Origin: an uncultured Candidatus Bathyarchaeia archaeon
GTDB lineage: Archaea; Thermoproteota; Bathyarchaeia; 40CM-2-53-6; RBG-13-38-9
Length of the DNA: 45,909 nucleotides
Assembly: GCA_964627775.1 (NCBI GenBank)
Contig: CAZVKZ010000001.1
Coordinates: forward strand, 1-45,909
Direction: 5' to 3'
A program made the translations under genes and the position numbers. Numbering within the stretch: position 1 is the first letter of the stretch; each line of letters begins with the position of its first letter. Positions 3 to 38,001 of the stretch are shown piece by piece. The notes under the pieces are model-generated. The model searched no databases and was not told where the DNA came from. It saw nothing but the letters and a program-made list of their open reading frames with translations.

Positions 3-224
3 GGACGTTACCGGATCTTGTCAACAGGAGTGGATTCAGATGGAAAAAGACTGATCCCACTGAGACCAAACTACAAGACCAAGATCAACAGTATGAGAAG
101 ATACGTCTCTGTTCTTCACCCAAGAAGAGGCGAATTCATGAGGCTATACTCTAGCGAACCAGAACGACTACAACAGGCAATCCGCAAAGTCATCGAAGGA
201 AAAAAGAGGAGGAAAACAAAATAG
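3..224 (+). CDS. 3' end of an unidentified CDS entering from upstream of the window (K/R-rich C-terminus)
   Basis: The frame is open from the window edge to TAG at 222-224. The ORF track shows only the part from an internal start at 18. No family recognised from the visible residues. Confidence 0.3.
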   Translation, partial: GRYRILSTGVDSDGKRLIPLRPNYKTKINSMRRYVSVLHPRRGEFMRLYSSEPERLQQAIRKVIEGKKRRKTK

Positions 225-2778: not shown

Positions 2779-3981
2779 TTGACAGGCAACTATTCATACC
2801 GTAGTGTCAACGGGGAAACTACACTGTGCAGGGAAGATGCAAAACCACTCCTTCTGAGGACCAAAAAGCTAGTCTTCGATTGCGACGGAGTAATAGTCTC
2901 AGACATTAACTCATACAGGGAGGCAATAGTGCGATCAGTCGATTACTATTTCCTAAGACTCCTCGGACTCAAAGGAGAAGAAAGGCACCTTGTGAATAAA
3001 GAAGACATTCAGAGATTGAAAGACACAGGCGCCTTCAACAACGACTGGAAACTCACATACGCGCTAATAATCTACTACTTGGGGTTGATTCTGAGTCGAC
3101 TGCAGAAAGGGGTCAAGTTGCAGGCTGATGCAGGCCTTGGAGAGGGCCCTCGGTCCGCCCTAAAAGATCTCCTTAGACGGCTGGAGTCACTTGGGGAGAA
3201 GTCTAACTCGTCTGGGTTAGATATCACCTATCTGGAGAGGATGAAGTCTGACCCGTCGCTAGGCTTCAGTCAACTCGTAGAAACATTCACCGAGGATGCG
3301 GACCTTGAAATTCTGAAGGGTGTCAGCGAGATCCTAGGATTGAATACTGCAATGCTCGAAGCAATGAAGAGCTTATGTCCATTCGATATTCATGAAGAGG
3401 ATCTGCTACGAAGACTCTTTGACGAGATCTATCTTGGCAACGTCTTATATTCCAAGTTCACCATCAAGAAACCATTCTTCAATTTCAGAGAGGGCCTCAT
3501 AGACAAGGAGGAGAGAATCCCTTCGACAGAAACGCTCAAGAGACTAAAGTCCAGATTTGGACTGTTCGCGATGTATTCTGAGAGGCCGAGAAACGAAGGC
3601 CTTTACATCCTACAGAAACACAACCTTCTCGATTACTTTGACAGTCGAGCGATTTTCTTCAGCGAAGACCTGATAGAAGTCTGCAAAAGCGTCGATCAAG
3701 ATTTGGTATGGGGGAAACCTCACGCAAGAGCCTTCGTGGCACTCATAGATATATTCTGCCAAGAATCCGACACAGTAGCATATGTAGGAGACACAGTCTC
3801 GGACGCTTTGATGATAAATAACGCTAGAGACCTTACGCCGAGAGAGTTGCTGTTCATCGGCACATTGTCTTCCTCTCCAAAAGACAGAAAGCTAGCGGAT
3901 AGATTCATGGAACTGGGAGCCGAAGTAATAGTAAAAGATGCAAACTTAATACCTACAGTCTTCGATAAGATTGGAAAGTAG
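2779..3981 (+). CDS. HAD-superfamily hydrolase with a large cap insertion; candidate histidinol-phosphate phosphatase by operon context
   Basis: 400 aa, TTG start (first start candidate after the in-frame TAG at 2764-2766). HAD motif I FDCDGVIV, motif III WGKPHARAF, motif IV VGDTVSD. The stop lies 5 nt before hisB. Confidence 0.7.
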   Translation: MTGNYSYRSVNGETTLCREDAKPLLLRTKKLVFDCDGVIVSDINSYREAIVRSVDYYFLRLLGLKGEERHLVNKEDIQRLKDTGAFNNDWKLTYALIIYYLGLILSRLQKGVKLQADAGLGEGPRSALKDLLRRLESLGEKSNSSGLDITYLERMKSDPSLGFSQLVETFTEDADLEILKGVSEILGLNTAMLEAMKSLCPFDIHEEDLLRRLFDEIYLGNVLYSKFTIKKPFFNFREGLIDKEERIPSTETLKRLKSRFGLFAMYSERPRNEGLYILQKHNLLDYFDSRAIFFSEDLIEVCKSVDQDLVWGKPHARAFVALIDIFCQESDTVAYVGDTVSDALMINNARDLTPRELLFIGTLSSSPKDRKLADRFMELGAEVIVKDANLIPTVFDKIGK

Positions 3982-8587: not shown

Positions 8588-9751
8588 TTATTCGTCTTCG
8601 CCTGCTCTGACGGCCACTGCACGTGCCATGTCCAGGGTGCTGCTCTCACCACCCATGTCATAGGTTTTGACCTTCCCTTCAATGATTACATCAGCCACCG
8701 CACGTTCAACCTTTTCGGCTAGCGTACGTTCACCAAGGTATTCGACCATCATCTCGACAGAGAGAAGCATCGCCAGCGGGTTAACCTTGTACTGTCCAGC
8801 ATACTTTGGGGCTGAGCCATGCGTCGGCTCAAAGACCGCGTAATCTTCGCCGATATTTCCGCTGGGCGCGAAGCCGAGACCTCCTACCAGCTGTGCGCAC
8901 AAGTCAGAGATGATGTCCCCGAAAAGATTCTCGGCGACGATGATTGAGTAGTCAAGAGGGTTCTTCAGTAGCCACATACACAGCGCATCGATATTTGTCT
9001 CGATCAGCTTGATGGCGGGGTATTTCCTGGCAACCTCTCGGGCTTGCGTCAGCATCAGTCCGCCTGTCTCTCTCAGTATGTTTGGTTTCTCAGCCACGGT
9101 CACGGTCTTGTAGTTTCTGTCTTTGGCATATTCGAAAGCTTGGGTTAGGATATTGTTGCAGGCTTTCTTTGTCATTATTCTCATTGAGATGGCTATCTCG
9201 TCTGGAGGCGTCGGTTCGAATCTCTTCATCTTAGGATGATTCTGAACTAGCCATTGCATTAGAGGTGTTGGGAGGGGATGAAACTCGACCCCGCTGTACA
9301 GGCCTTCTGTATTCTCTCTGAAAACGACTATATCGATTCCTTCTCTGTAGTTGAGCTGGTTGCCTCTATAGCTCTTGCACGGCCTCATGTTTGCGTATAG
9401 GCTAAACTCTTGGCGTAGCCTAACGACTGGACTGTAATACTGGTAGCCTTTACCCCTGAGTTCGGGGTTGAGTTCGAGCTGGGCTTCTTCTTTTGGTTTG
9501 GATGTGATAGCTCCGAGTAGGCATACATCAGTGCTTTTTAGGAGATCTAGGGTTCGCTGTGGTAGCGGGTCCCCTTCTTTCTTCCAAAACTCCCATCCAA
9601 TATCCCCAACGTAATACTGAGCGTCGAGCCTAATCGCTTCAAGCAGTATCTTGGCGGCGTCCATGACATCCTTGCCGATACCGTCTCCGGGGAGCAGGGC
9701 TATTCGATACTTGGCCATGGCAGGTCGTACCGCGCAGCTGAATTGTTCCAT
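8588..9751 (-). CDS. Isocitrate/homoisocitrate/isopropylmalate dehydrogenase family enzyme, specificity unresolved
   Basis: 387 aa. LPGDGIGKDV, LYANMRP, NLFGDIISDLCAQLVGGLG. The likely true start is the MAKYRIALL methionine at 9718. Lies 11 nt downstream of leuA on the same strand. Confidence 0.8.
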   Translation of the reverse strand: MEQFSCAVRPAMAKYRIALLPGDGIGKDVMDAAKILLEAIRLDAQYYVGDIGWEFWKKEGDPLPQRTLDLLKSTDVCLLGAITSKPKEEAQLELNPELRGKGYQYYSPVVRLRQEFSLYANMRPCKSYRGNQLNYREGIDIVVFRENTEGLYSGVEFHPLPTPLMQWLVQNHPKMKRFEPTPPDEIAISMRIMTKKACNNILTQAFEYAKDRNYKTVTVAEKPNILRETGGLMLTQAREVARKYPAIKLIETNIDALCMWLLKNPLDYSIIVAENLFGDIISDLCAQLVGGLGFAPSGNIGEDYAVFEPTHGSAPKYAGQYKVNPLAMLLSVEMMVEYLGERTLAEKVERAVADVIIEGKVKTYDMGGESSTLDMARAVAVRAGEDE

Positions 9752-9762
9752 ACAAGAACGTG

Positions 9763-11289
9763 TTAGGGTTGTCCTCTGGAGCGCTTTAATCGTCTTTTTA
9801 TCAGAGTCTTGTTGATTCCTTCTATCATAGCTTCTACGCTTGCGATTACCACGTCTTCCCTAGCGGCTCTAGCAGATATTATGTTGCCTTCGCTATCCTC
9901 AACTTTTATGAGAACCTCCGCTAGCGCATCCGATCCTCCGGTCGTCGCTTCCAACCTGTACTCTCTCAAACGGACGTTAACGAGTGATCCTACAATCTTC
10001 TGAATCGCTCTGATGGCGGCATCAACCGGCCCCACACCTGTCTCGGACGCAACATATTCTTTGCCGTCAACAAGTATCTTGACTGATGACGTTGGAACGA
10101 CCGCTGTTCCTGTGACGACTGTCAGATTCTGCAGGTCAACGATCCTCTTCTCCCCCGACACGCCGCCTATGACCGCGGCGGCTATCGCGAAGAGCTCAGC
10201 GTCGGTGACACTCTTTCCTTTGTCTCCAATCTCTTTAACTCGGCTTACTATCTCTTTCATCTGCTCTTCTGTTGGATGGAGCCCGTCTTCCTCGAGCTTA
10301 GCCGCAATGCCGTGTCCACCTGCATGCTTTCCAGCTTGGAACCATCTGCTTCTTCCGACTAGGTCAGGGCTGATCGGCTCGTAGGTCAGGGGGCTTTTCA
10401 GGACTCCGTGTGTGTGTATTCCTGATTCATGGCCGAAAGCGTTTTCTCCAACTATGGCTTTGTTAGGCTGCACAGGCACGCCTGTAAGCCTTGAGACCAA
10501 TCTTGAGGTTTCATAGATCAGTTTTGTGTTGATTCTTGTTCTTTTGTTATGGAGCATGTGGAGCGCCATCACGAATTCTTCAAGTGAGGCATTTCCAGCT
10601 CTCTCACCCAGCCCGTTTATTGTAACGTGAGCTTGGGAGGCGCCTGCTCTTACTCCTGCGAGAGAGTTTGCTACAGCCAAGCCGAAGTCGTTGTGGCAGT
10701 GCACGCTGATGGGTATAGAGACCGTGGATACAGCTTGAGCTATTACATCGAACATTCTTTCCGGCGTCGCTGTTCCGACTGTGTCGGGGACATTTATTAT
10801 GTCGGCTCCAGACTCCTCTGCTACATTCAGTACCTGCTTAAGAAAGTCGGGTTCTGTCCTTGTGGCATCCTCGGGGGAGAATTCTACGACTACGCCATGA
10901 TCTTTTGTGTAGCCGATCCACTTTCTCGCAGCCTCCAGGACCTGTTCCTTGTTCATCTGGAGCTTGTGTTTCATGTGGATCTCTGATGTTGCTATGAACA
11001 CGTGTACATATGGAACCTCACATTCGAGGGCCGCGTCTATATCCTTTTGGTTTGTTCTTGCGAGTCCACAGACTTTTGCTTTCAAGCCTTGTTTCGTGAT
11101 TAGTTTGACGGCTTCCAGTTCTCCTTTTGATACTATCGGGAAGCCTGCCTCTATGGCGTCGACTCCAAGCTCGTCGAGTTTGATGGCTATCTCAAGTTTT
11201 TCATCCGGTGTTAGCGAGACCCCTGGTGTCTGTTCTCCGTCCCTCAGGGTTGTATCGAATATTCTAACCAAGTCTTTTTGAAGCTGCAT
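9763..11289 (-). CDS. leuA: 2-isopropylmalate synthase or (R)-citramalate synthase (LeuA/CimA family)
   Basis: 508 aa. [31 protein letters not shown], and a C-terminal LeuA-dimer-type regulatory domain of about 130 aa. Confidence 0.85.
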
Positions 11290-11292
11290 CTT

Positions 11293-12321
11293 CTACATCT
11301 CCAGTATTCTCTTTGCGATTGCCTTTCCAACCTCTACCGTCTTGGCCTTTCCCCCGAGATCTGGTGTTGTGATGTCTGACTTGAGGGTATCGATGAAGGT
11401 TTCCTCAATCGCGGTTGCGGCTTTCATCCACTCTTCGCCCCCGCCTCTGTCGCCGAAGTATTCGAGCATCATCTTTGAGGAGAGTATCATTGAGCATGGA
11501 TTGGCCGTTTGTCTTCCTGCTATGTCTGGTGCTGACCCATGGACGGGTTCGAAGAGGGCAAAATCCCTTCCTATGTTGGCTGATGGAGCGACACCTAGTC
11601 CTCCAACGAGCTGCGCCGCCTCATCAGATAGTATATCGCCGAACATATTTGTCGTTACTATGACATCAAACTCTTGAGGGTTCCTTATGAGGTTCATCGC
11701 AGCGGCGTCGACGTACATCTCATTCATTGTGATGTCGGGGTAGTTTCTTGATGTCTCTTGGCACATTCTTCTGAAGAGGCCATCTGTTATCTTCATAACG
11801 TTTGCTTTGTGGATTGCTGTTACCCTTCTCTTGTTGTTTCTCAGCCTTGCCAGCCTGAATGCGTAGTCAGCTATGTTCCTTGATCCTGCTGCGGTTATGA
11901 CACGCATTGCAAGGGCTGTCTCATCAAGTTCGAATTCTATTCCCTTGTAGACGTCTTCTGTATTCTCTCGTACGATTACAAGATCTATGCCAGGTCTTAG
12001 ACATTCTATTCCTGGATAGGCCTTGGCTGGCCGTATGTTGGCGTAGAGTTTGAAGATTAGTCTGAGAGGCAATATGACTTCTCTGGCCATCTCTCCCACA
12101 GGGCCCTTGAGAACTGCATCAGAATTCTTGACGACTTCCATAGTATCTTGTGGTAGTGCCTGTCCGCTTTTTCTGAAGCACTCGTCCCCAGCATCGACTT
12201 TGGTAAAAGCTAGGCCTAAACCAAACCTGTCTTTGGCAGCCTCCAAGACTCTTAGGGTGGCTTCTGTCTGTTCTGGACCAATTCCATCTCCAGGTATGAC
12301 GGTTACTCTTCGCTCTCTCAT
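11293..12321 (-). CDS. leuB: 3-isopropylmalate dehydrogenase (possibly broad-specificity)
   Basis: 342 aa. IPGDGIGPE, LYANIRP, NMFGDILSDEAAQLVGGLG. Embedded between leuD and leuA. Confidence 0.8.
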   Translation of the reverse strand: MRERRVTVIPGDGIGPEQTEATLRVLEAAKDRFGLGLAFTKVDAGDECFRKSGQALPQDTMEVVKNSDAVLKGPVGEMAREVILPLRLIFKLYANIRPAKAYPGIECLRPGIDLVIVRENTEDVYKGIEFELDETALAMRVITAAGSRNIADYAFRLARLRNNKRRVTAIHKANVMKITDGLFRRMCQETSRNYPDITMNEMYVDAAAMNLIRNPQEFDVIVTTNMFGDILSDEAAQLVGGLGVAPSANIGRDFALFEPVHGSAPDIAGRQTANPCSMILSSKMMLEYFGDRGGGEEWMKAATAIEETFIDTLKSDITTPDLGGKAKTVEVGKAIAKRILEM

Positions 12322-12821
12322 CGCTTCCCTATCAAGCCTCTCACGTGAGGAATTAAGCCTCCCTCCTCGAGCAGATTCAGAATGAAATCTGGTAGGGGGG
12401 AGGATTTCAGCGTGATCCTTCTCGTCTGATTGTCGACTACTCCAGCTTTTAGATCTACTGAGAGGAGGTCACCCTCTTGTGTCTTCTCTGATACTCCTTG
12501 GCACTCTAGGGCTGGGAGCCCGATATTTATCGAGTTTCTGTAGAATATTCGTGCGAAGGATTCTGCCAGTACGCACCTTACGCCGGCGCTCTTCAGAGCT
12601 ATCGCTGCTTGTTCTCTGCTTGAGCCGCAGCCGAAGTTCCTGCCTCCTACGAGTATTACTCCTTCTCTTGCTCTCTGTGAGAATGTTGGATCTAATCCTT
12701 CGAGTGCGTGTATTCCGAGCTCTTCTGGGTCTATCAACTCAAGGTAGTTTCCTGGGAGGATCACGTCTGTGTTTATGTTGTCTCCGAACTTCGTCGCTTT
12801 CCCTGTTATTGTCACGTTCAT
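12318..12821 (-). CDS. leuD: 3-isopropylmalate/homoaconitate dehydratase small subunit
   Basis: 167 aa. GRNFGCGSSREQAA swivel-domain motif. 4-nt overlaps with both leuC and leuB. Confidence 0.85.
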   Translation of the reverse strand: MNVTITGKATKFGDNINTDVILPGNYLELIDPEELGIHALEGLDPTFSQRAREGVILVGGRNFGCGSSREQAAIALKSAGVRCVLAESFARIFYRNSINIGLPALECQGVSEKTQEGDLLSVDLKAGVVDNQTRRITLKSSPLPDFILNLLEEGGLIPHVRGLIGKR

Positions 12822-14080
12822 CGCCTCCTGAGTTCATTTGGGTCTGTTATGTGTCCTGTTATACCGGATGCTGCTGCGGTAGCTGGGTTCGCTAGGTAGA
12901 CCTCGGATTCTGGGCTTCCCATTCGTCCTATGAAGTTGCGGTTTGAGGTGCTGATGCAGGCCTCTTTTGGTGCGAGTAGGCCCATGTGTCCTCCGAGGCA
13001 TGGGCCGCAGGTGGCGTTGGTGACTATCGCCCCTGCCTCCATGAATGTCTTGAATAGGCCTTCCTTGAGGCATTTCCGGTATACTTCCTGTGACGCTGGG
13101 CTCACGATCATTCTGACGTCGTGATGGATCTCTCTGTTTTTCAGAATCGCCGCGGCCAGACGGAGGTCTTCAATTCGACCGTTTGTGCATGAGCCTATGA
13201 ATACCTGGTCTATCTTCACGCTTGAGAGTTCAGATGCTGGTTGTACATTGTCGACTGATGGTGGGCAGGCCACTACCGGGTTCAGTTTTGAGACATCGTA
13301 TTCCAGAGTGTCCTCATAGACGGCGTCCTTGTCGCTCTTCACTGGTTTGAAAGGTTTCTTTGTCCTGGCCTTCACGTAGGCTATGGTTTTGTTGTCTGGG
13401 GGGACTATGCCTGCCTTTGCCCCAGCCTCCACAACCATGTTACATACGGTCAGTCTGCCATCGATGCTCATGTTTGTGAATGTCGAACCAGTGAATTCCA
13501 TTCCTTTGTATATTGCGCCGCCTTCGCCAATGTCGCCGATAATCCTTAGTATCAGGTCTTTTGATGTGGTGTTTCTTTTGAAAGGCCCTATCGCATGGAT
13601 TTTCAAGGCCTTCGGCACCTTGAACCACATTTTGCCTGTAGTAAATACCGCCGCCATCTCTGTGGATCCTATCCCGGTCGCGAATGCGCCGAGCGCGCCG
13701 TAGGTGCACGTGTGGGAGTCGGCACCCACAATGAGCTCCCCCGGCCGCGCGTGCCCTTTCTCATGGAAGACTTGATGGCAGATGCCTCCTTGACCAATGT
13801 CGTATAGGCTTTGAATATGCTGTTCTTTTACGAATTCTCGTAGGCCTTTCTGGAGTTTTGCAGCTCTAATGGTGCTTGCTGGAACTAGGTGGTCGAAGAT
13901 CACAACTATCTTCTTTGGATCCCACACCTTTTCTGAGCCAATCTTTCGGAAAGAGTCGACGGTCAATGGACCAGTTAGGTCGTGGATCATCGTCATGTCT
14001 ATGTTTGCTTCGACGATCTCTCCAGGGGTCACCTCTTTTCTCTCTGAGGCCCTCGCAAGTATCTTCTCGAAGATGTTCAA
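12818..14080 (-). CDS. leuC: 3-isopropylmalate/homoaconitate dehydratase large subunit
   Basis: 420 aa aconitase-family protein with GSCTNGR and CGPCLG Fe-S ligand motifs. TTG start. Confidence 0.85.
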   Translation of the reverse strand: MNIFEKILARASERKEVTPGEIVEANIDMTMIHDLTGPLTVDSFRKIGSEKVWDPKKIVVIFDHLVPASTIRAAKLQKGLREFVKEQHIQSLYDIGQGGICHQVFHEKGHARPGELIVGADSHTCTYGALGAFATGIGSTEMAAVFTTGKMWFKVPKALKIHAIGPFKRNTTSKDLILRIIGDIGEGGAIYKGMEFTGSTFTNMSIDGRLTVCNMVVEAGAKAGIVPPDNKTIAYVKARTKKPFKPVKSDKDAVYEDTLEYDVSKLNPVVACPPSVDNVQPASELSSVKIDQVFIGSCTNGRIEDLRLAAAILKNREIHHDVRMIVSPASQEVYRKCLKEGLFKTFMEAGAIVTNATCGPCLGGHMGLLAPKEACISTSNRNFIGRMGSPESEVYLANPATAAASGITGHITDPNELRRR

Positions 14081-14127
14081 TCTTCATACCTTTGGATTTG
14101 TTTCATGAACTTTCTATTTCGTACCCA

Positions 14128-14140
14128 TATTAAAGATTTC
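14128..14140 (-). promoter_or_regulatory. Candidate BRE/TATA promoter element of the leuCDBA operon
   Basis: The minus strand reads GAAATCTTTAATA, 48-60 nt upstream of the leuC TTG. An identical 13-mer lies upstream of lysW. Confidence 0.45.
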
Positions 14141-14144
14141 CGCC

Positions 14145-14151
14145 AAAAAAA
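14145..14151 (-). terminator. Oligo-T (T7) tract downstream of ilvC, candidate archaeal terminator
   Basis: The minus strand reads CCTTTTTTTGG about 50 nt after the ilvC stop and immediately before the leuC promoter element. Confidence 0.45.
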
Positions 14152-14199
14152 GGTCGATGAATCACTTAATTCACAAAGAAATTACGAAATTCAGCAGTA

Positions 14200-15204
14200 T
14201 CAGTAGGTCGTCGCGCCTTTCTCTATCCCCGCCATCTGCCTGATCTTCTTGCCGACTTTCTCGATCGGGTGTTCCTCAAGTTCCTTCATGAGCTTGTTGA
14301 GTCTCTCCATGCTCTTCTTTGGATCGCCGCTCCAGTCTCTTGCGAACTCGCCGCTCTGGACGAACTTGACAACCTTACGCATGTTCTCCTTCACGTGATC
14401 GTCGATCACTCTTGGTCCGACAGTTAGACTTCCGTACTGGGCTGTGTGAGAGATCATCTTCATCATCCTCGTCAGCCCACCTTCGTAGAGGAGGTCGACC
14501 ATGAGTTTCAGCTCGTTGGCCACTTCGAAGTATGCGAGCTCGGGCTGGTAGCCAGCCTCGACAAGAACCTCGAATCCTTTCTTGACCAGCTCCATCGAGC
14601 CTCCGCCCAGAACTGTCTGTTCACCTATTATGTCAGTCTCCGCTTCTTCTTTGAACGTTGTCTCGATCACTCCTGCTTTGGTTGCGCCCAAGGCCTTTGC
14701 CATCGCAAGGATTATCTCTTTGGCTTTGCCAGAGGCGTCTTGGTAGACCGCTATCAGTGCGGGTACACCGAAACCTTCCTTATAGATCTCTCTCAGCCTT
14801 GATCCTGGGCTCTTGGGGGCGACCATCATGACATCCACGTTCTTGGGCGGTACTATCTGCTTGAAGTGTATGTTGTAGCCGTGTGAGCAACTGATTGCCT
14901 TGCCTGGTTTCAGGTTTGGTTCAATGTATTTGCGGTACACAGCCGGCTGTTCCAGGTCAGGGAAGAGCATGTGTATGATGTCACCTTTCTTCACTGCCTC
15001 ATCCACGGTTAGGGGTGTGAAACCTTCCTGCTCAGCCAGTTTCCAAGATTTTCCTCCTGGCTTCAGACCTACAACTACATTAATCCCTGAATCTCGGAAG
15101 GTTAGGGCTTGAGCGTGCCCTTGGTTTCCGTATCCAATAACGGCTATGGTCTTTCCTTCAAGGTACTTCAAGTCTGCATCTTCGTCGTGGTATACTTTTG
15201 CCAT
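14200..15204 (-). CDS. ilvC: Ketol-acid reductoisomerase (class I)
   Basis: 334 aa. [11 protein letters not shown] dinucleotide-binding motif and typical KARI C-terminal knotted domain sequence. Confidence 0.9.
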
Positions 15205-15216
15205 CTCAATTCACCA

Positions 15217-15735
15217 TTATTCGTTTATTCTTACAGATTCTGGTCCCCTTATAAGTGCAGTCTCCCCTGTTCTGGCTACCTCGACGAGACCAAAGGTTCT
15301 AGTTAGGTTGATGAAGGCGTCTATCTTGTCCTTGCTACCGACTATCTCTACGGTCACTGTTGAGGGCGAAACGTCAACGATTCTACCTCGGAAGACATCC
15401 ACGTAGTTGAAGATGTCTGAACGAATCTTCGGATCTGCTGAGCTGAGTTTGATCAAGGCGAGTTCCCTCACTACGGCTCTTTGAGGATCGAGTCTTGTGG
15501 CTTTTAGAACGTCTATGAGCTTCTCAAGCTGGCCGACCAGCTGGACAGCGTCTTCCTCTTCCCCCTTGATTGTTATGGTCATGCGAGCCAGGTCTTCCTG
15601 CTCCGCGGTTCCGATTGAGATGCTTTCTATGTTGAAACCGCGGCGCCAGAACATGTTTGAGACTTTATAGAGTACACCGGGCTTGTGCTCAACTAGAGCC
15701 GATATGATGAAGGTTCTCGGCATTTCTTCTTTCAC
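15217..15735 (-). CDS. ilvN: Acetolactate synthase small (regulatory) subunit
   Basis: 172 aa. N-terminal ACT domain (ALVEHKPGVLYKVSNMFWRRGFNIESISIG). 4-nt overlap with ilvB. Confidence 0.85.
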   Translation of the reverse strand: MKEEMPRTFIISALVEHKPGVLYKVSNMFWRRGFNIESISIGTAEQEDLARMTITIKGEEEDAVQLVGQLEKLIDVLKATRLDPQRAVVRELALIKLSSADPKIRSDIFNYVDVFRGRIVDVSPSTVTVEIVGSKDKIDAFINLTRTFGLVEVARTGETALIRGPESVRINE

Positions 15736-17411
15736 CCTATTACATCCTTCAGACTATATCCCGCAGGCACCATCGGTAAGACGTTCTCCTCTGGATCTAT
15801 TGGGACATCTATCACAGTCGTGACGTCGCTTGTTAGGGATTTTTTGAATGCGTCTGACAGCTCCCTTATTGAACCGACGCGCAGTCCTTGAGCCCCGTAG
15901 GCTTCCGCCAGTTTCACAAAGTCTGGAACATTGCCAAGTTCAACCGCGGAGTATCGTCGGTTATAGAAGAGCCTCTGCCACTGTGCGACCATTCCAAGCA
16001 TCCGATTATTCAGTATCAGGACTGTAACCGGGATTTTTTCTAGGACCGATGTTGCGAGTGAGTTCTCTGTCATCATGAAACTCCCGTCGCCGGCTATGTC
16101 GACGACGTGGACGTCAGGCTTTGCGGCTTTTGCGCCTATTGAGGCCGGGAACCCGTATCCCATGCAGCCGAAGCCTCCGGATGTGATGAAGGTTCTCGGC
16201 AGTAATGCCTTGAAATACAGTGAGGACCACATCTGGTTCTGACCCACCTCTGTCGTCACTATCGAATTCAAGGGTAACAGCCGTCTGAGCTCCTTCAAGA
16301 CCTTTGGAGGGGTTAGCTCTTTTCCGGAATTCTCTATCTTGTCTGCATAAGCCTCTTTGACTTCCCTAACCTTTCTCGACCATTCGGTATCCTTCTTTGT
16401 AGTGATGCGGGCGACGACGGCTTGGTGCAATGCGCTTAGGGCGTAGCTTGCGTCACTGACGATCGCTACGTCAACGCACTTGTTCTTTCCAATCTCGGCC
16501 GCGTCTATATCTACATGTATGACGTGCGTAGTAGGACAGAACTCGTCGACTTTCCCGGTAGTTCGATCGCTGAATCGACAGCCGACTGCCAGTAGTACAT
16601 CAGCCCCGTAGATCAATTGATTGGCTTCTTTTGAGCCGTGCATTCCAATGGTTCCCATAGAGAGGGGATGGTCTTCGGGGAAGCTACCTTTGCCCATAAG
16701 CGATGTCGCAACCGGTGCGAAGATTAGTTCCGCGAGTTGGCGTAGTCCATGCGAGGCATTCGATAGAGTCACACCGCCTCCTGCTAGGATAAATGGTCTT
16801 TCAGCGTTAGCCAGCATCTCTGCGGCCTTGTTGATCTGGACTGGATCCGGACGGTAGACTGTCTTATACCCCCTTATCTCAACTTTTTCCGGAAACTCTA
16901 CCTCTGCTGAGTCAACTAGGACGTCTTTTGGTATATCTACCAGGACTGGCCCTGGTCTTCCTGTACTGGCTATGTGAAATGCAGCCTTGATGGTTTTCGG
17001 TATCTCCCCAACTTTGCGCGGCTGAAAGCTATATTTGGTCGCGGGGCTTGCTATGCCGATTATGTCTGCTTCCTGGAATGCGTCTAGGCCTATCTGGGGG
17101 ATAGAGACTTGGCCTGTTATGGCGACTACTGGTGAGGAGTCGAGTTGTGCATTCGCCAAACCAGTGACTAGATTGGTGGCTCCTGGTCCAGAGGTTGCCA
17201 TGCATACCCCTGTTCTCCCGCCTGCTCTTGCGTAGCCATCTGCCATGTGGGCGGCAGATTGCTCGTGTCTTGCAAGGATGTGTCTGATGTTTGAGTCTAA
17301 GAGTGCATCGTAGGCGGGCATTATCGCTCCGCCGGGAAAGCCAAAGATGACGCTGACCTTCTCTCTTTCCAATGACCCTATCAGGGCTTTTGCGCCAGAC
17401 AGCTTAACCAT
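15732..17411 (-). CDS. ilvB: Acetolactate synthase large subunit (ThDP-dependent)
   Basis: 559 aa. ThDP motif IAGDGSFMM...LILNN. Full-length collinearity with AHAS catalytic subunits. Confidence 0.9.
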   Translation of the reverse strand: MVKLSGAKALIGSLEREKVSVIFGFPGGAIMPAYDALLDSNIRHILARHEQSAAHMADGYARAGGRTGVCMATSGPGATNLVTGLANAQLDSSPVVAITGQVSIPQIGLDAFQEADIIGIASPATKYSFQPRKVGEIPKTIKAAFHIASTGRPGPVLVDIPKDVLVDSAEVEFPEKVEIRGYKTVYRPDPVQINKAAEMLANAERPFILAGGGVTLSNASHGLRQLAELIFAPVATSLMGKGSFPEDHPLSMGTIGMHGSKEANQLIYGADVLLAVGCRFSDRTTGKVDEFCPTTHVIHVDIDAAEIGKNKCVDVAIVSDASYALSALHQAVVARITTKKDTEWSRKVREVKEAYADKIENSGKELTPPKVLKELRRLLPLNSIVTTEVGQNQMWSSLYFKALLPRTFITSGGFGCMGYGFPASIGAKAAKPDVHVVDIAGDGSFMMTENSLATSVLEKIPVTVLILNNRMLGMVAQWQRLFYNRRYSAVELGNVPDFVKLAEAYGAQGLRVGSIRELSDAFKKSLTSDVTTVIDVPIDPEENVLPMVPAGYSLKDVIG

Positions 17412-17478
17412 TATAGTATCATCTCTGTTGTTTTTTGCGCAGCCGTTACAGCAACTTATTGAGAGTTCGCTGCTTCGG

Positions 17479-17577
17479 CTACACTAAAATTACTACAATG
17501 ACGATGAGTACCACTGGGAGTCTGAGGTTACGAAGTAGCTTAGGAAGGTAGTCAGTACGCAATTGTACCCCACTCAT
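17479..17577 (-). CDS. Candidate ilv leader peptide (32 codons, BCAA-run C-terminus)
   Basis: Hand translation of the minus strand gives ATG (17577-17575) ... TAG (17481-17479) = MSGVQLRTDYLPKLLRNLRLPVVLIVIVVILV. The last 11 codons are all Val/Ile/Leu. The stop is 67 nt upstream of the ilvB ATG on the same strand. Below the ORF-track size cutoff. Confidence 0.45.
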   Translation of the reverse strand: MSGVQLRTDYLPKLLRNLRLPVVLIVIVVILV

Positions 17578-17581
17578 CGTC
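17500..17581 (-). repeat. Perfect 10-bp inverted repeat (GACGATGAGT / ACTCATCGTC) bracketing most of the leader ORF
   Basis: Arms at 17572-17581 (contains the leader ATG) and 17500-17509 (covers the leader codons CTC ATC GTC). 62-nt spacer. Confidence 0.6.
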
Positions 17582-17643
17582 TTGTTCGCCGTAAATGCTA
17601 TTCTTGCGCCTATAAGGCTATTGGTGAAATTCAGATGGCGGGT

Positions 17644-19047
17644 TCAGGTTTCAAATTTTTTCAGCACGAGCTGCGTCTCGGTTGCCGTTACGCCTTCAAT
17701 CTCCCTTATCCTTTCTAGGCTCTCGTTCAGGTCCGCGGTCGAATCTGCTGTGATGGTGACCTCGATATCATAGTTGCCGGTGACCTCGTAGACCTTTGTG
17801 ATTTTCTTGAGTGCTTTGAGTCTTCTGGCTATCGCTGTTGTGTAGACATTTGATTCGCACTTGACTCTTAGAATTGCTTCGACTTTGCTTGGGACCTCGG
17901 CTTTGAGGTTCCTACCGGTCGACTGTTCAGCCAGCTCGATGAGGTCGGCATCCCTAAATCTTGTGATATTAGGTCTCTCTTTTATCGCTTGGACGATGCG
18001 GCTGATCTGGTCGTTGCTGAGGGTGACGCCAAGCCTTTCGAGCCGGGATTTGACAGCGTGGATGCCGGTGTATTTGTCGATGATTATGTCTCTTTGTCTG
18101 CCTATCAGGTCCGGCGGGAAACCTTCGTAGGTTGATGGGTTCGCTAGGACCCCGGCCACGTGGATGCCCGCTTTGTGAGTGAAAGCATTCTCCCCAATAA
18201 TGGGGGTATTCGGTGCTGGGACTATTCCGCTGAGTCTCTCAGACAATAGAGATAGTGAAGGAAGTTGATCAAGCTTCACCGTCTCTATTCCATATATCAC
18301 TTTCAAAGCAACAGCTACCTCGCTGAGCGGCGCGATTCCACTTCTTTCCCCAAGTCCATTGATCGTTACGTGGGCTGCAGTAGCCCCGCCCTCAAGGCCT
18401 GCGAGCGTATTGGCTGTTGCCATGCCAAGATCGTTGTGGCAGTGCGTGTCAAGCTCTGCCTTCAGCCGGCTACTGAGGCTTTGGAACAGCTCGCGCACGC
18501 CTGGGGGAGTCATTATCCCGACAGTGTCCGGGATACTGATTCTGTCCGCTCCAGCCTCTTGTGCGATTTTGCAGATCCTGAGTAGGAAATCTCTATCGGT
18601 TCTCGAAGCATCCTCGGCTGTGAATCTTATCTTCAGCCCATGGCTCTTTGCGTGGTCTATTGCTTTGGTTACAAGCTCTATGGCTTTGTCTTCATCCTTC
18701 CATAGTTTGTGTTGGAGGTGGGATTTTGAGGTCCCAAGGAATATTGCGACCCTGTCAACCTCGCATGAGGCGGCGTTCTCAACATCCGGAACCAGGGCTC
18801 TGCAATGGGCAAGTATTTCTGATTTAAGCCCTTCCCTTGCGATCCTAGTGACAGCTTCTTTGACGTCTTGTGAGACATTTGGATCCCCCGCCTCGATCAT
18901 GTGGACTCCAATCTCATCGAGTTTTCGTGCTAGCTCAAGCTTCTCTTCTATTGTGAAGGTGACGCCTGGGGTCTGCTCTCCTTCTCTCAAAGTCGTATCA
19001 AGGATGAGTACATTTTTGGGTATCTTTCTTTCACTCAATTGAATCAC
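17644..19047 (-). CDS. Homocitrate synthase-type enzyme with C-terminal RAM (Lrp/AsnC ligand-binding) domain
   Basis: 467 aa, GTG start overlapping the lysK stop (GTGA). ILDTTLREGEQTPGV, HCHNDLGMATANTLA. The last ~80 aa (VYEVTGNYDIEVTITADSTADL...GVTATETQLVLKKF) look like an AsnC-type RAM domain. Confidence 0.75.
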   Translation of the reverse strand: MIQLSERKIPKNVLILDTTLREGEQTPGVTFTIEEKLELARKLDEIGVHMIEAGDPNVSQDVKEAVTRIAREGLKSEILAHCRALVPDVENAASCEVDRVAIFLGTSKSHLQHKLWKDEDKAIELVTKAIDHAKSHGLKIRFTAEDASRTDRDFLLRICKIAQEAGADRISIPDTVGIMTPPGVRELFQSLSSRLKAELDTHCHNDLGMATANTLAGLEGGATAAHVTINGLGERSGIAPLSEVAVALKVIYGIETVKLDQLPSLSLLSERLSGIVPAPNTPIIGENAFTHKAGIHVAGVLANPSTYEGFPPDLIGRQRDIIIDKYTGIHAVKSRLERLGVTLSNDQISRIVQAIKERPNITRFRDADLIELAEQSTGRNLKAEVPSKVEAILRVKCESNVYTTAIARRLKALKKITKVYEVTGNYDIEVTITADSTADLNESLERIREIEGVTATETQLVLKKFET

Positions 19048-24048: not shown

Positions 24049-24222
24049 CTATTCACCCCAGTCTTCTCTTTCTATCGTAACTTGCACGAGCCCTACCTTT
24101 GACTGGTCCTTCTTCACCTGCAATTCGAGTCCGCAATCCGGGCAGACTACTATCTCACCGTCGATTGCATCGTCTGGAATCTTAACGTCAGCTGAGCAGT
24201 CCGGGCACTTCTGGCTTTCCAC
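24049..24222 (-). CDS. lysW: Amino-group carrier protein LysW (copy 1)
   Basis: Hand translation gives (GTG)ESQKCPDCSADVKIPDDAIDGEIVVCPDCGLELQVKKDQSKVGLVQVTIEREDWGE*. 57 aa with a CxxC...CxxC zinc ribbon and the diagnostic C-terminal EDWGE. A GAAGAGGTG SD-like element lies upstream. Not in the ORF track. Confidence 0.85.
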   Translation of the reverse strand: MESQKCPDCSADVKIPDDAIDGEIVVCPDCGLELQVKKDQSKVGLVQVTIEREDWGE

Positions 24223-24955: not shown

Positions 24956-25129
24956 ATGAAATGCAAATGCTCCGAATGTGACGGCGAAATCAATATGCCC
25001 AAAGATGCCGTCAACGGTGAAATAGTCACATGCCCCGACTGCGGTCTCGAATTTGAACTATCAGTCGATGAGCATGGAAAGTGCACTCTAAAAGTCGCTG
25101 AGGTCGTCGGCGAAGATTGGGGAGAGTGA
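24956..25129 (+). CDS. lysW: Amino-group carrier protein LysW/ArgW-like (copy 2)
   Basis: Hand translation gives MKCKCSECDGEINMPKDAVNGEIVTCPDCGLEFELSVDEHGKCTLKVAEVVGEDWGE*. 57 aa with a zinc ribbon and C-terminal EDWGE. Not in the ORF track. Confidence 0.85.
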   Translation: MKCKCSECDGEINMPKDAVNGEIVTCPDCGLEFELSVDEHGKCTLKVAEVVGEDWGE

Positions 25130-37252: not shown

Positions 37253-37502
37253 AGGCTTCAGCCATCGCTCCAGTACTCTCTATGAACACTACAAAACCGC
37301 TACCCAACCAATATGTCTATTGCAAAACCTCTATCGACTTCAAATCTAGGCTAGTTCCCAACCTGAAGATTCTTGAAGTTACAGACCGTAGGCCAATCAA
37401 TCACACTTTGCACTGCACCATATCTAGAGGTTGAGTGCGGCCCACTTAATCTGAGGAAAGCGGTTTTATAGCAGCTTAGACAAACGATACAAAAGATGTG
37501 CA

Positions 37503-37742
37503 ATGATATCTGCATGCGTCTTGATACGTACTGAACGAGGTAGGTTCGACGAGGTCGTGGACCGAATGAAACAATTCAAGGAGACGAGAAATGTGATGGC
37601 GGTCCTAGGCAGATATGACGTAGTCGTGGACATCGAGGTTTCTGACTATGATAGTCTTGGGGCTGTAGTGATGAAGATGGGAAAAATCGGCGGTGTCGTG
37701 TTTACTGAGACACTGCCAGAGATGAAGATTGCAGGTGTGTAA
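37503..37742 (+). CDS. Stand-alone RAM (Lrp/AsnC ligand-binding) domain protein
   Basis: 79 aa. ACVLIRT...VLGRYDVVVDIEV...GVVFTETL. No HTH. Confidence 0.7.
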   Translation: MISACVLIRTERGRFDEVVDRMKQFKETRNVMAVLGRYDVVVDIEVSDYDSLGAVVMKMGKIGGVVFTETLPEMKIAGV

Positions 37743-37744
37743 CT

Positions 37745-37969
37745 ATGCTGAATGCCTGTGTCCTAATAAAGACTATACCAACGAGAATCCAAGACACTCT
37801 CTCAGAAGTGAAGAAGTTCAAGCAGGTCAGAAAGGCATACATGGTATACGGCCGATGGGATGTCGTTGCCCTGATGGAGGTCTCGGAATACAGAGAACTC
37901 AAAGCTATCACAGCCCAGATAAATGCGATGAAGGGCGTAAGAAGTACAGAGACGCTCGCAAGCACCTGA
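37745..37969 (+). CDS. Stand-alone RAM domain protein, tandem paralog
   Basis: 74 aa. ACVLIKT...VYGRWDVVALMEV...GVRSTETL. Starts 2 nt after the preceding gene. Confidence 0.7.
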   Translation: MLNACVLIKTIPTRIQDTLSEVKKFKQVRKAYMVYGRWDVVALMEVSEYRELKAITAQINAMKGVRSTETLAST

Positions 37970-38001
37970 TCCGGCTAGCATAACTTGAACCAAGACTGCC
38001 A

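Follow-up and report, generated by a model that had tools for sequence, protein, structure and literature searches.

Is amino-acid synthesis in an archaeon controlled by the translation of a leader peptide? Leader-peptide attenuation is a textbook mechanism of bacteria; transcription and translation are coupled in Archaea, and to our knowledge no amino-acid-responsive leader peptide has been described in this domain. The question is raised by contig CAZVKZ010000001.1 (GenBank assembly GCA_964627775.1) of an uncultured Candidatus Bathyarchaeia archaeon, whose 45,909 nt were analysed as a whole and are called the window below. Just upstream of its ilvB gene lies a short open reading frame (ORF) that ends in an uninterrupted run of Val, Ile and Leu codons. 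An earlier note, made from the letters of this DNA, had suggested that the ORF could be a leader sensing branched-chain amino acids (BCAA), and that it would more likely act by occlusion of translation initiation or by coupling than by classical termination. Based on the comparison of archaeal ilvB loci described here, the ORF is likely to be a functional cis-acting BCAA-sensing leader.

A short ORF with a Val/Ile/Leu tail upstream of ilvB

The ORF and its terminal run are located as follows:
17479-17577, minus strand: leader ORF, from translation; orthologous ORFs in loci L162-L168, L082, L159 and L083
17482-17514, minus strand: C-terminal run of 11 uninterrupted Val/Ile/Leu codons, proposed ribosome-stalling sensor

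Read from its ATG start (17577-17479), the leader ORF has 32 codons and a stop codon and encodes the peptide MSGVQLRTDYLPKLLRNLRLPVVLIVIVVILV. Val, Ile and Leu make up 18 of the 32 residues, and the final 11 codons consist of 6 Val, 3 Ile and 2 Leu. The stop codon is 67 nt away from the ilvB ATG (17411), and the ORF lies inside a 232-nt gap 3' of a homocitrate-synthase-like gene. The coordinates, composition and distances given in the earlier note were all reproduced from the window sequence. The window is a complete contig of a metagenome-assembled genome (MAG); the named proteins most similar to its IlvB (77-79% identity) carry the label Candidatus Bathyarchaeia, and an aIF5B-type factor, L7Ae and LysW are further archaeal markers in it.

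Conservation of the leader ORF among archaea

The ilvB loci, numbered with the letter L, were drawn from GTDB genomes, JGI metagenomes and an exact-protein look-up of closer relatives. A short ORF with a terminal Val/Ile/Leu run was found at the same place in 11 of 11 loci whose IlvB is 67-100% identical to that of the window (67-90% in its closest relatives), the C-terminal tails of close orthologues being, for example, LRLLVILIVIVIILV, PQLIVQLIVLVVLLL, KLIALLIVVLVLLV, VTLLLIVIVILI, IQLVILLVVVVILV and PIVLLLVLVVILQ, each directly before the stop codon. The distance from the leader stop codon to ilvB was always 15-107 nt across the carriers, and the leader was still there in L166, where the upstream neighbour is argG and not homocitrate synthase. 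Farther carriers were L088, L085 and L121, soil Nitrososphaerales (L093, L102), a Methylarchaceae MAG and a Nitrososphaerales-labelled MAG (L169, L170), Archaeoglobaceae (L031, L033, L038) and a DHVE2 MAG (L016). In Nitrosopumilales there is a conserved ORF of 18-21 codons with a Val/Ile/Leu tail, such as MSTMITGKLGVLLLVDLVL up to the stop codon. The leader was absent in some relatives, for example in Candidatus Bathyarchaeum tardum (L003) and in Bathyarchaeota BA2 (L171), where ilvB lies directly 3' of leuA. A lack of conservation in relatives would speak against the proposal of the earlier note; this objection clearly fails, since all close relatives keep the ORF, its C-terminal run and its position, as do several further archaeal lineages.

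At the examined loci the leader ORF had been called by no gene caller. Three of the leader peptides were absent from a collection of 15 billion proteins in an exact-match look-up, and have therefore never been annotated. In four soil Nitrososphaerales loci (L004, L089, L090 and L091) a common AATATTTTAGTAGTACTTTAG (N-I-L-V-V-L-stop) is located about -70 to -48 before ilvB; an in-frame TAA stands just upstream of it in L089, which resembles a decaying leader.

Occurrence beyond chance and association with ilvB

The 300 nt upstream were compared with 300 dinucleotide-preserving shuffles, scored by the number of Val, Ile and Leu residues in the best 10-residue stretch. The score of the window, 10, was reached by no shuffle (p <= 0.003), and the same was found for five of the six next closest loci, the sixth (L083) giving p = 0.01. 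Values of p <= 0.01 were obtained in 11 of the 60 loci with the most similar IlvB versus 3 of the 92 more distant, mostly bacterial loci, and the reverse strand of the same upstream regions gave no comparable Val/Ile/Leu signal. The ORF is also specific to ilvB: within the same archaeal loci, a Val/Ile/Leu-rich short ORF ended 10-160 nt upstream of 19 of 64 ilvB genes versus 0 of 162 other long ORFs with an upstream gap (Fisher p = 4e-12). A search of about 170 loci for analogous leader ORFs of 17 other residues ahead of other long ORFs gave none, and the intergenic gaps of the window contained no leader ORF for another amino acid. A 9-codon ORF, LPVVVVLVR (151-180, minus strand), was dismissed as antisense to another ORF.

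Coding signature of the terminal run

Over the final 11 codons of 11 orthologues, T is the second base in 113 of 121 cases; the first and third positions vary freely, with all four nucleotides in use. Among these 113 NTN codons 112 encode Val, Ile or Leu, one encodes Phe and none Met, whereas even NTN usage would give about 21 codons for Phe or Met. The last 10 residues are 82% Val, Ile or Leu and 5% other hydrophobic residues over 31 leaders, and 104 of 110 in the window's clade are Val, Ile or Leu. All indels inside the ORF in an alignment of 9 sequences are multiples of three. The N-terminal parts show no conservation between clades and are conserved within sub-clades (MSE.EM, MED..SD..YQG, MST..TG). 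The second-base T, the avoidance of Phe and Met, the composition, the in-frame indels and the lack of N-terminal conservation between clades argue that selection acts on the decoding of Val, Ile and Leu codons, and speak against a membrane helix or an RNA motif alone as its target.

Structure of the leader RNA

The alignment used here, A2, comprises the 9 sequences of the window's clade, and its conserved blocks follow in the order promoter, A, B, GTAGTAATTCTAGTGTAG-CC, hairpin H, A-run, C and ilvB ATG. Those named in the analysis, some of them resembling a Shine-Dalgarno (SD) sequence or its complement, are in the window:
17609-17625, minus strand: putative promoter of the B recognition element (BRE)/TATA type, ACCAATAGCCTTATAGG, ~31 nt ahead of the leader ATG
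17571-17581, minus strand: element A, GACGATGAGTG, leader start codon and SD-like GAGTG; 5' arm of helix A:B
17500-17509, minus strand: element B, ACTCATCGTC (Leu-Ile-Val codons), anti-SD-like; partner of both A and C
17437-17484, minus strand: hairpin H, with the conserved core at 17479-17442 and a stem that extends to 17484-17437 in the window
17431-17436, minus strand: A6 run 3' of hairpin H, conserved in the 9 sequences
17418-17423, minus strand: element C, GATGAT, SD-like element for ribosome binding at ilvB, 6 nt before its ATG (17411)

The promoter block, ACC(A/G)ATAACCTTATAGG, is the most conserved of the alignment. The TATA-like CCTTATAGG is located at 17617-17609, as the earlier note had it, and its sequence and spacing suggest a promoter role. 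Element A, which appears in the alignment as the block GACGATGAGTGA, contains the first start codon together with GAGTGA, an SD-like sequence for a second start in frame; this second start is an ATG in 7 of 9 sequences and a TTG in the window (17562-17560) and in L162. In element B, CTC(A/G/C)TCGT, the bases CTC.TCGT are invariant in the 9 sequences. A perfect 10-bp inverted repeat, 17581-17572 with 17509-17500, had been pointed out earlier and was found. RNAalifold gave an 11-bp helix A:B with 95% of the cells paired over the 9 sequences and one compensatory UA->CG pair, in L167 and L159. The covariation score of the observed helices (A:B and H) was matched by 0 of 500 column shuffles, and pairing dropped to 28-58% in slid helix registers. 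It may be speculated that helix A:B blocks re-initiation on the leader or latches the ON state.

Hairpin H begins at the last base of the leader stop codon and has a free energy of -26.3 kcal/mol (z = -6.0 against shuffles). In its main stem 92% of the cells are paired (RNAalifold, 9 sequences) and 4 pairs are changed on both sides; in L159 the change of the stop codon from UAG to UAA is matched by a C->U change in the hairpin partner. Stable hairpins that directly follow the stop codon or span it are seen again in other lineages, where the sequences are unrelated, with z of -6 to -1.9 in the window's wider clade and a mean of -1.5 over 28 loci (t = -3.9). The earlier note had described two mutually exclusive stems formed by GCAGC in this region. 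The complementarities exist, but folding and alignment give one nested, conserved hairpin in place of the two alternative stems, so a switch between them was not borne out. The true alternatives would be the helices of the run with the leader start and of the run with the ilvB SD. These two do not make up a terminator/antiterminator pair, and a dependence of the choice between them on the ribosome is predicted from modelling.

The A6 run (17436-17431) was likewise confirmed to stand where a terminator would have its U-tract, and an A-run is present in all 9 close sequences. Pairing of this A-run with the U-rich end of the Val/Ile/Leu run is possible and would extend hairpin H towards the ilvB ribosome-binding site, and the U:A pairs 151:211 and 154:207 are kept in 9 of 9 sequences. 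Bacterial-type or archaeal oligo-U termination is thus unsupported in the window's clade, since no U-tract follows hairpin H. A classical terminator was rejected there on this ground and on that of a pattern scan of the region, in which terminator-like sites showed no enrichment (21 found, 17.5 expected). No Rfam family reached its gathering score in the window, and matches at E <= 10 within 17350-17700 were at chance level alone. A second promoter between leader and ilvB would be permitted by the A-run and the spacing in the window's clade; it was not adopted, GATGAT standing at the SD position of the relatives.

Other lineages differ in this interval. In Nitrosopumilales a conserved element TTTTAACAC(A/G)TTAAAATTATGG lies between the Val/Ile/Leu-tailed ORF and ilvB, at about -55 to -25 (L106, L111, L115, L110, L109, L113, L011 and L010). 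It is probably a second TATA box giving a leaderless ilvB mRNA in a tandem-promoter arrangement. Locus L013 (3836-4006), without a short ORF, retains TTAATTAAAATTAT about 22 nt ahead of the ilvB ATG. A terminator-like U-rich tract, for example GCCUUUUUUAGAGGUGAU, is found 3' of the stop-adjacent hairpin in L038 (Archaeoglobus sp.), L008, L010, L016, L169 and L170.

Possible pairing of the run with the ribosome-binding site of ilvB

Element C is invariant in the 9 sequences. Its position is that of the SD in leader-less relatives (GGAGGTG, AGGAGG, GGTGA/GGAGG) and in other window genes, and the base by which it departs from GGUGAU is the very one that creates complementarity to Ile and Val codons, namely AUC-GUC/AUC-AUC of the run. 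When element A was left out, RNAalifold independently paired UC(G/A)UC of the run with GAUGA of element C in 9 of 9 sequences, enclosing hairpin H; B is therefore a common partner of A and C. The 15 pairs of the extended B:C helix, as derived from the window, are formed to 85%, and most of them never vary; the duplex in the window has -13.4 kcal/mol (p = 0.02-0.08).

The same A/B/C design is present with different sequence in L169 and L170, as GGAGGAC, GUCCUCC and AGGAGGA. Here GUCCUCC arises from two Ser codons (UCC UCC) that break the run, and it is complementary to both the leader start AUGGAGGAC and the ilvB SD AGGAGGAUA. The B:C energies in L169 and L170 are -20.0 and -14.9 kcal/mol (shuffle p = 0.004-0.04). 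A 6-mer of the run complementary to both regions occurred in 9 of 28 leader loci versus 4.2 expected under codon permutation (P ~0.007, uncorrected for the relatedness of the loci).

The accessibility of the ilvB ribosome-binding site was modelled with the ribosome footprint as an unpaired stretch. In the window, the modelled probability of this site being unpaired was 0.20-0.22 when B could pair with C, as against 0.52-0.63 when a ribosome occupied the run. A similar shift was obtained in 5-6 of the 9 close sequences and in L169.

Proposed control of the ilvBNC-leuCDBA genes

The genes that the leader would control are, by NCBIfam and Pfam assignments:
8588-17411, minus strand: presumed controlled operon
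15732-17411, minus strand: ilvB
9763-11289, minus strand: leuA
8588-9751, minus strand: Iso_dh-family gene

The product of ilvB (17411-15732, minus strand) is a 559-aa biosynthetic acetolactate synthase large subunit. The order 3' of the leader, on one strand, is ilvB, ilvN, ilvC, leuC/hacA-type, leuD, leuB-type, leuA and Iso_dh-family, all in the same orientation with short gaps, and ilvBNC-leuCDBA appear to form one operon. In L164 (4183-4521) ilvN was called at 112 aa as against 168 aa in the others, and a truncation or frameshift is possible there.

In the proposed mechanism, transcription would start from the conserved TATA promoter and the 5'-proximal short ORF would be translated. When charged tRNA-Val, tRNA-Ile or tRNA-Leu is scarce, the ribosome would dwell on the 11-codon run. 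Within the run, the anti-SD-like segment B (CUCAUCGUC) could pair with the ilvB region C (GAUGAU and its flanks), which would extend hairpin H and mask ilvB initiation; alternatively B could pair with the leader start region A (GACGAUGAG). A stalled ribosome would hide B and melt the base of H, leaving the ilvB site open so that ilvBNC-leuCDBA are translated. Quick transit of the ribosome would free B to pair with C, starting at the base of H, and would thereby attenuate translation.

The earlier suggestion of a BCAA-sensing leader that acts by occlusion of translation initiation or by coupling is supported by the conservation of the ORF, the codon pattern, which nothing but selection for Val/Ile/Leu coding explains, the missing U-tract in the clade and the pairing of the run with the ilvB SD in two clades. 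For the window's clade we accordingly lean, with a fair margin for doubt, towards a cis-acting BCAA sensor that works by ribosome stalling and has a translational output. A broader claim, to which we give slightly better than even chances, is that ribosome-mediated leader-peptide control of an amino-acid operon, without a bacterial-type terminator, is widespread in Archaea, from Bathyarchaeia and Methylarchaceae to ammonia-oxidising Nitrososphaeria including Nitrosopumilus-type genomes, Archaeoglobaceae and DHVE2. At the centre of this control, codons for the end products would serve as an anti-SD in a three-way RNA switch, toggling between the ribosome-binding sites of the leader and of ilvB. 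Lineage-specific outputs, such as U-tract termination or tandem promoters, are possible.

Several results weigh against the translational mechanism. The core pairs of B:C are invariant in the clade and therefore yield no covariation. Across all lineages B:C was no better in RNAduplex than codon-permuted or shuffled controls (mean z ~0); SD occlusion by the run was consequently rejected as a general rule and retained for two clades, and A:B was only weakly enriched across all lineages (t = -2.2). In 3-4 of the 9 close sequences the modelled accessibility shifted little or not at all. When the full leader of the window is folded at equilibrium, A:B beats B:C by about 11 kcal/mol, which would leave the ilvB SD half open even without stalling; an equilibrium accessibility switch with the full 5' end was set aside, its effect being small because A:B dominates. 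The shuffle statistics overstate independence, because the sequences are phylogenetically related. The U-rich tracts in several lineages hint at a different or additional output, and together with the seeming second TATA of Nitrosopumilales they mean that the output may differ between lineages.

Alternative explanations

A BCAA-sensing leader could also have a transcriptional output, by premature termination at the stop-adjacent hairpin, modulated by the ribosome position on the run and either intrinsic at U-rich tracts or factor-dependent (FttA/aCPSF1, polarity-like). The hairpin directly 3' of the stop codon is indeed the most widespread structural feature, U-tracts follow it in L008, L010, L038, L016, L169 and L170, archaeal polarity has been attributed to FttA (PMC12548453), and helix A:B would stop repeated leader translation, which fits a one-shot co-transcriptional decision. 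However, an A-run and not a U-run follows the hairpin in 9 of 9 sequences of the window's clade, terminator-like sites are not enriched, and the 25-30 nt ahead of ilvB are too few for a second antiterminator/terminator pair. A stall early in the run would, moreover, let the stop-abutting hairpin form and lower expression on starvation, which would be the wrong logic. A transcriptional output is on the whole unlikely. Coupling of ilvB to the leader by termination and reinitiation was rejected as the main output, since the 67-nt spacing exceeds the limit of about 30 nt reported for H. volcanii and E. coli (PMC12548453). By our reasoning, single-hairpin termination, coupling of ribosome and RNA polymerase, and reinitiation would all give the wrong regulatory sign.

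The conserved thing might instead be a structured 5' leader RNA or the promoter region, with the ORF untranslated and the Val/Ile/Leu frame a by-product. The blocks A, B, H and C are strongly conserved in nucleotides with good structural support, and the lack of a gene call would agree with this. RNA pairing does not predict the second-base T (113/121) with free first and third bases or the avoidance of Phe and Met, however, and in-frame indels, the association with ilvB only and the occurrence of a Val/Ile/Leu-ending ORF at the same place in lineages without nucleotide similarity all speak for a translated frame, which makes this explanation improbable. Still less probable, to the point of being hard to credit, is a stable small hydrophobic (membrane) peptide acting in trans and unrelated to charged-tRNA sensing. 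Small membrane proteins are common and under-annotated, and the C-terminus is hydrophobic, with N-terminal conservation within sub-clades. Hydrophobic runs of 8-12 residues are, on the other hand, too short for a membrane helix, and those found here have 5-12 residues versus about 18-20 for a transmembrane helix. They consist to 82-95% of Val, Ile and Leu with almost no A, G, F, M or W (about 5% other hydrophobic residues) and carry an Asp or Glu inside the run in Nitrosopumilales. Nothing beyond composition is conserved between lineages, and the linkage to ilvB is strict even with a different upstream neighbour (L166, L169).

If the proposed translational control is true, it would be the first amino-acid attenuator described for the archaeal domain, and charged-tRNA sensing by ribosome stalling would regulate biosynthesis in a second domain of life. 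The terminator-free design would suit the archaeal RNA polymerase and leaderless or SD-led initiation, and the leader, at about 200 nt, would be small enough to serve as a concrete object for tests, the compensatory mutations being already predicted. It would also bear on the regulation of BCAA synthesis in globally abundant, poorly tractable groups (Bathyarchaeia and ammonia-oxidising archaea). ORFs of about 19-34 codons are a class systematically missed by gene callers.

Other features of the window

A LysW-type lysine cluster lies upstream of the leader region. The homocitrate-synthase-like enzyme (17644-19047, minus strand) has a RAM/AsnC_trans_reg (LysM-like) ligand-binding domain fused at its C-terminus (residues ~381-464), and the same fusion is present in L162-L165 and L168; this suggests that amino-acid sensing is built into the enzyme. 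Two 57-aa ORFs for LysW-type carrier proteins (...DWGE; 24049-24222, minus strand, and 24956-25129, plus strand) stand on either side of a small Lrp/AsnC-like regulator, each adjoining one LysX/ArgX-type ATP-grasp gene. In the histidine cluster, a 400-aa ORF between hisD and hisB (2779-3981, plus strand) has a weak HAD-hydrolase match only, and the 229-nt gap ahead of it (2550-2778) holds no His-rich leader ORF. A stretch of 749 nt (37253-38001) is without a long ORF and without an Rfam match. At the start of the window, a very basic (R/K-rich) 68-aa ORF (18-224, plus strand) is convergent with pheA, and a T-rich tract (~190-215, minus strand) lies 3' of pheA, as expected for archaeal oligo-T termination.

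Comparison with known systems

In full-text searches of the literature, bacterial ilv, leu, trp and Cys leader systems were found, and an archaeal amino-acid leader peptide was not. In the well-known leaders of the enterobacterial ilvBN (ivbL), ilvGMEDA (ilvL) and leu operons, about 30 codons long, runs of Val, Ile and Leu codons also stand just upstream of BCAA genes, and the regulatory codons take part in alternative RNA helices (comparative data in PMC1262725). Those leaders, however, form 1:2 / 2:3 / 3:4 helices with a hairpin and U-tract terminator for the bacterial RNA polymerase. The archaeal leader has no terminator in the window's clade, its run stands at the very C-terminal end, next to a single hairpin, its alternative partners would be two ribosome-binding regions, and it matches no Rfam leader family. 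The Corynebacterium ilvBNC leader and ilvB-II upstream ORF are likewise short, BCAA-rich and in control of an operon (PMC11857589, PMC10272879, PMC1262725), but they follow the bacterial three-hairpin terminator model and have no sequence or structural similarity to the archaeal leader.

Among translational systems, a ribosome stalled on the leader melts a hairpin and exposes the downstream ribosome-binding site in ermC, cat and cmlA (10.1101/834739). In cat and cmlA, as is generally known, it is a single hairpin that the leader ORF enters. The stall in these cases is caused by an antibiotic and a specific nascent peptide and not by codon supply, and resistance genes rather than a biosynthetic operon are controlled. 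The mycobacterial polycysteine attenuator Ms5788A, a leaderless short ORF with translational output, has been demonstrated experimentally (10.1101/834739), whereas the archaeal leader is deduced from sequence. Both have a 5'-proximal short ORF with a tract of end-product codons at its 3' end. In Ms5788A the tract pairs with the region ahead of the downstream gene including its SD, which a stalled ribosome keeps open, and the archaeal run may do the same in two clades. No terminator is involved in Ms5788A, nor is one present in the window's clade, and the host of Ms5788A is rich in leaderless mRNAs. Ms5788A differs in being bacterial and Cys-sensing, where the archaeal leader would respond to Val, Ile and Leu, and no equivalent of partner A or of the stop-codon hairpin has been described for it. 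By this analogy, the model we favour for the archaeal leader is translational attenuation of the mycobacterial Cys type, related to ermC/cat control. What would be new is leader-ORF attenuation in a new domain, with a terminator-free architecture of three elements.

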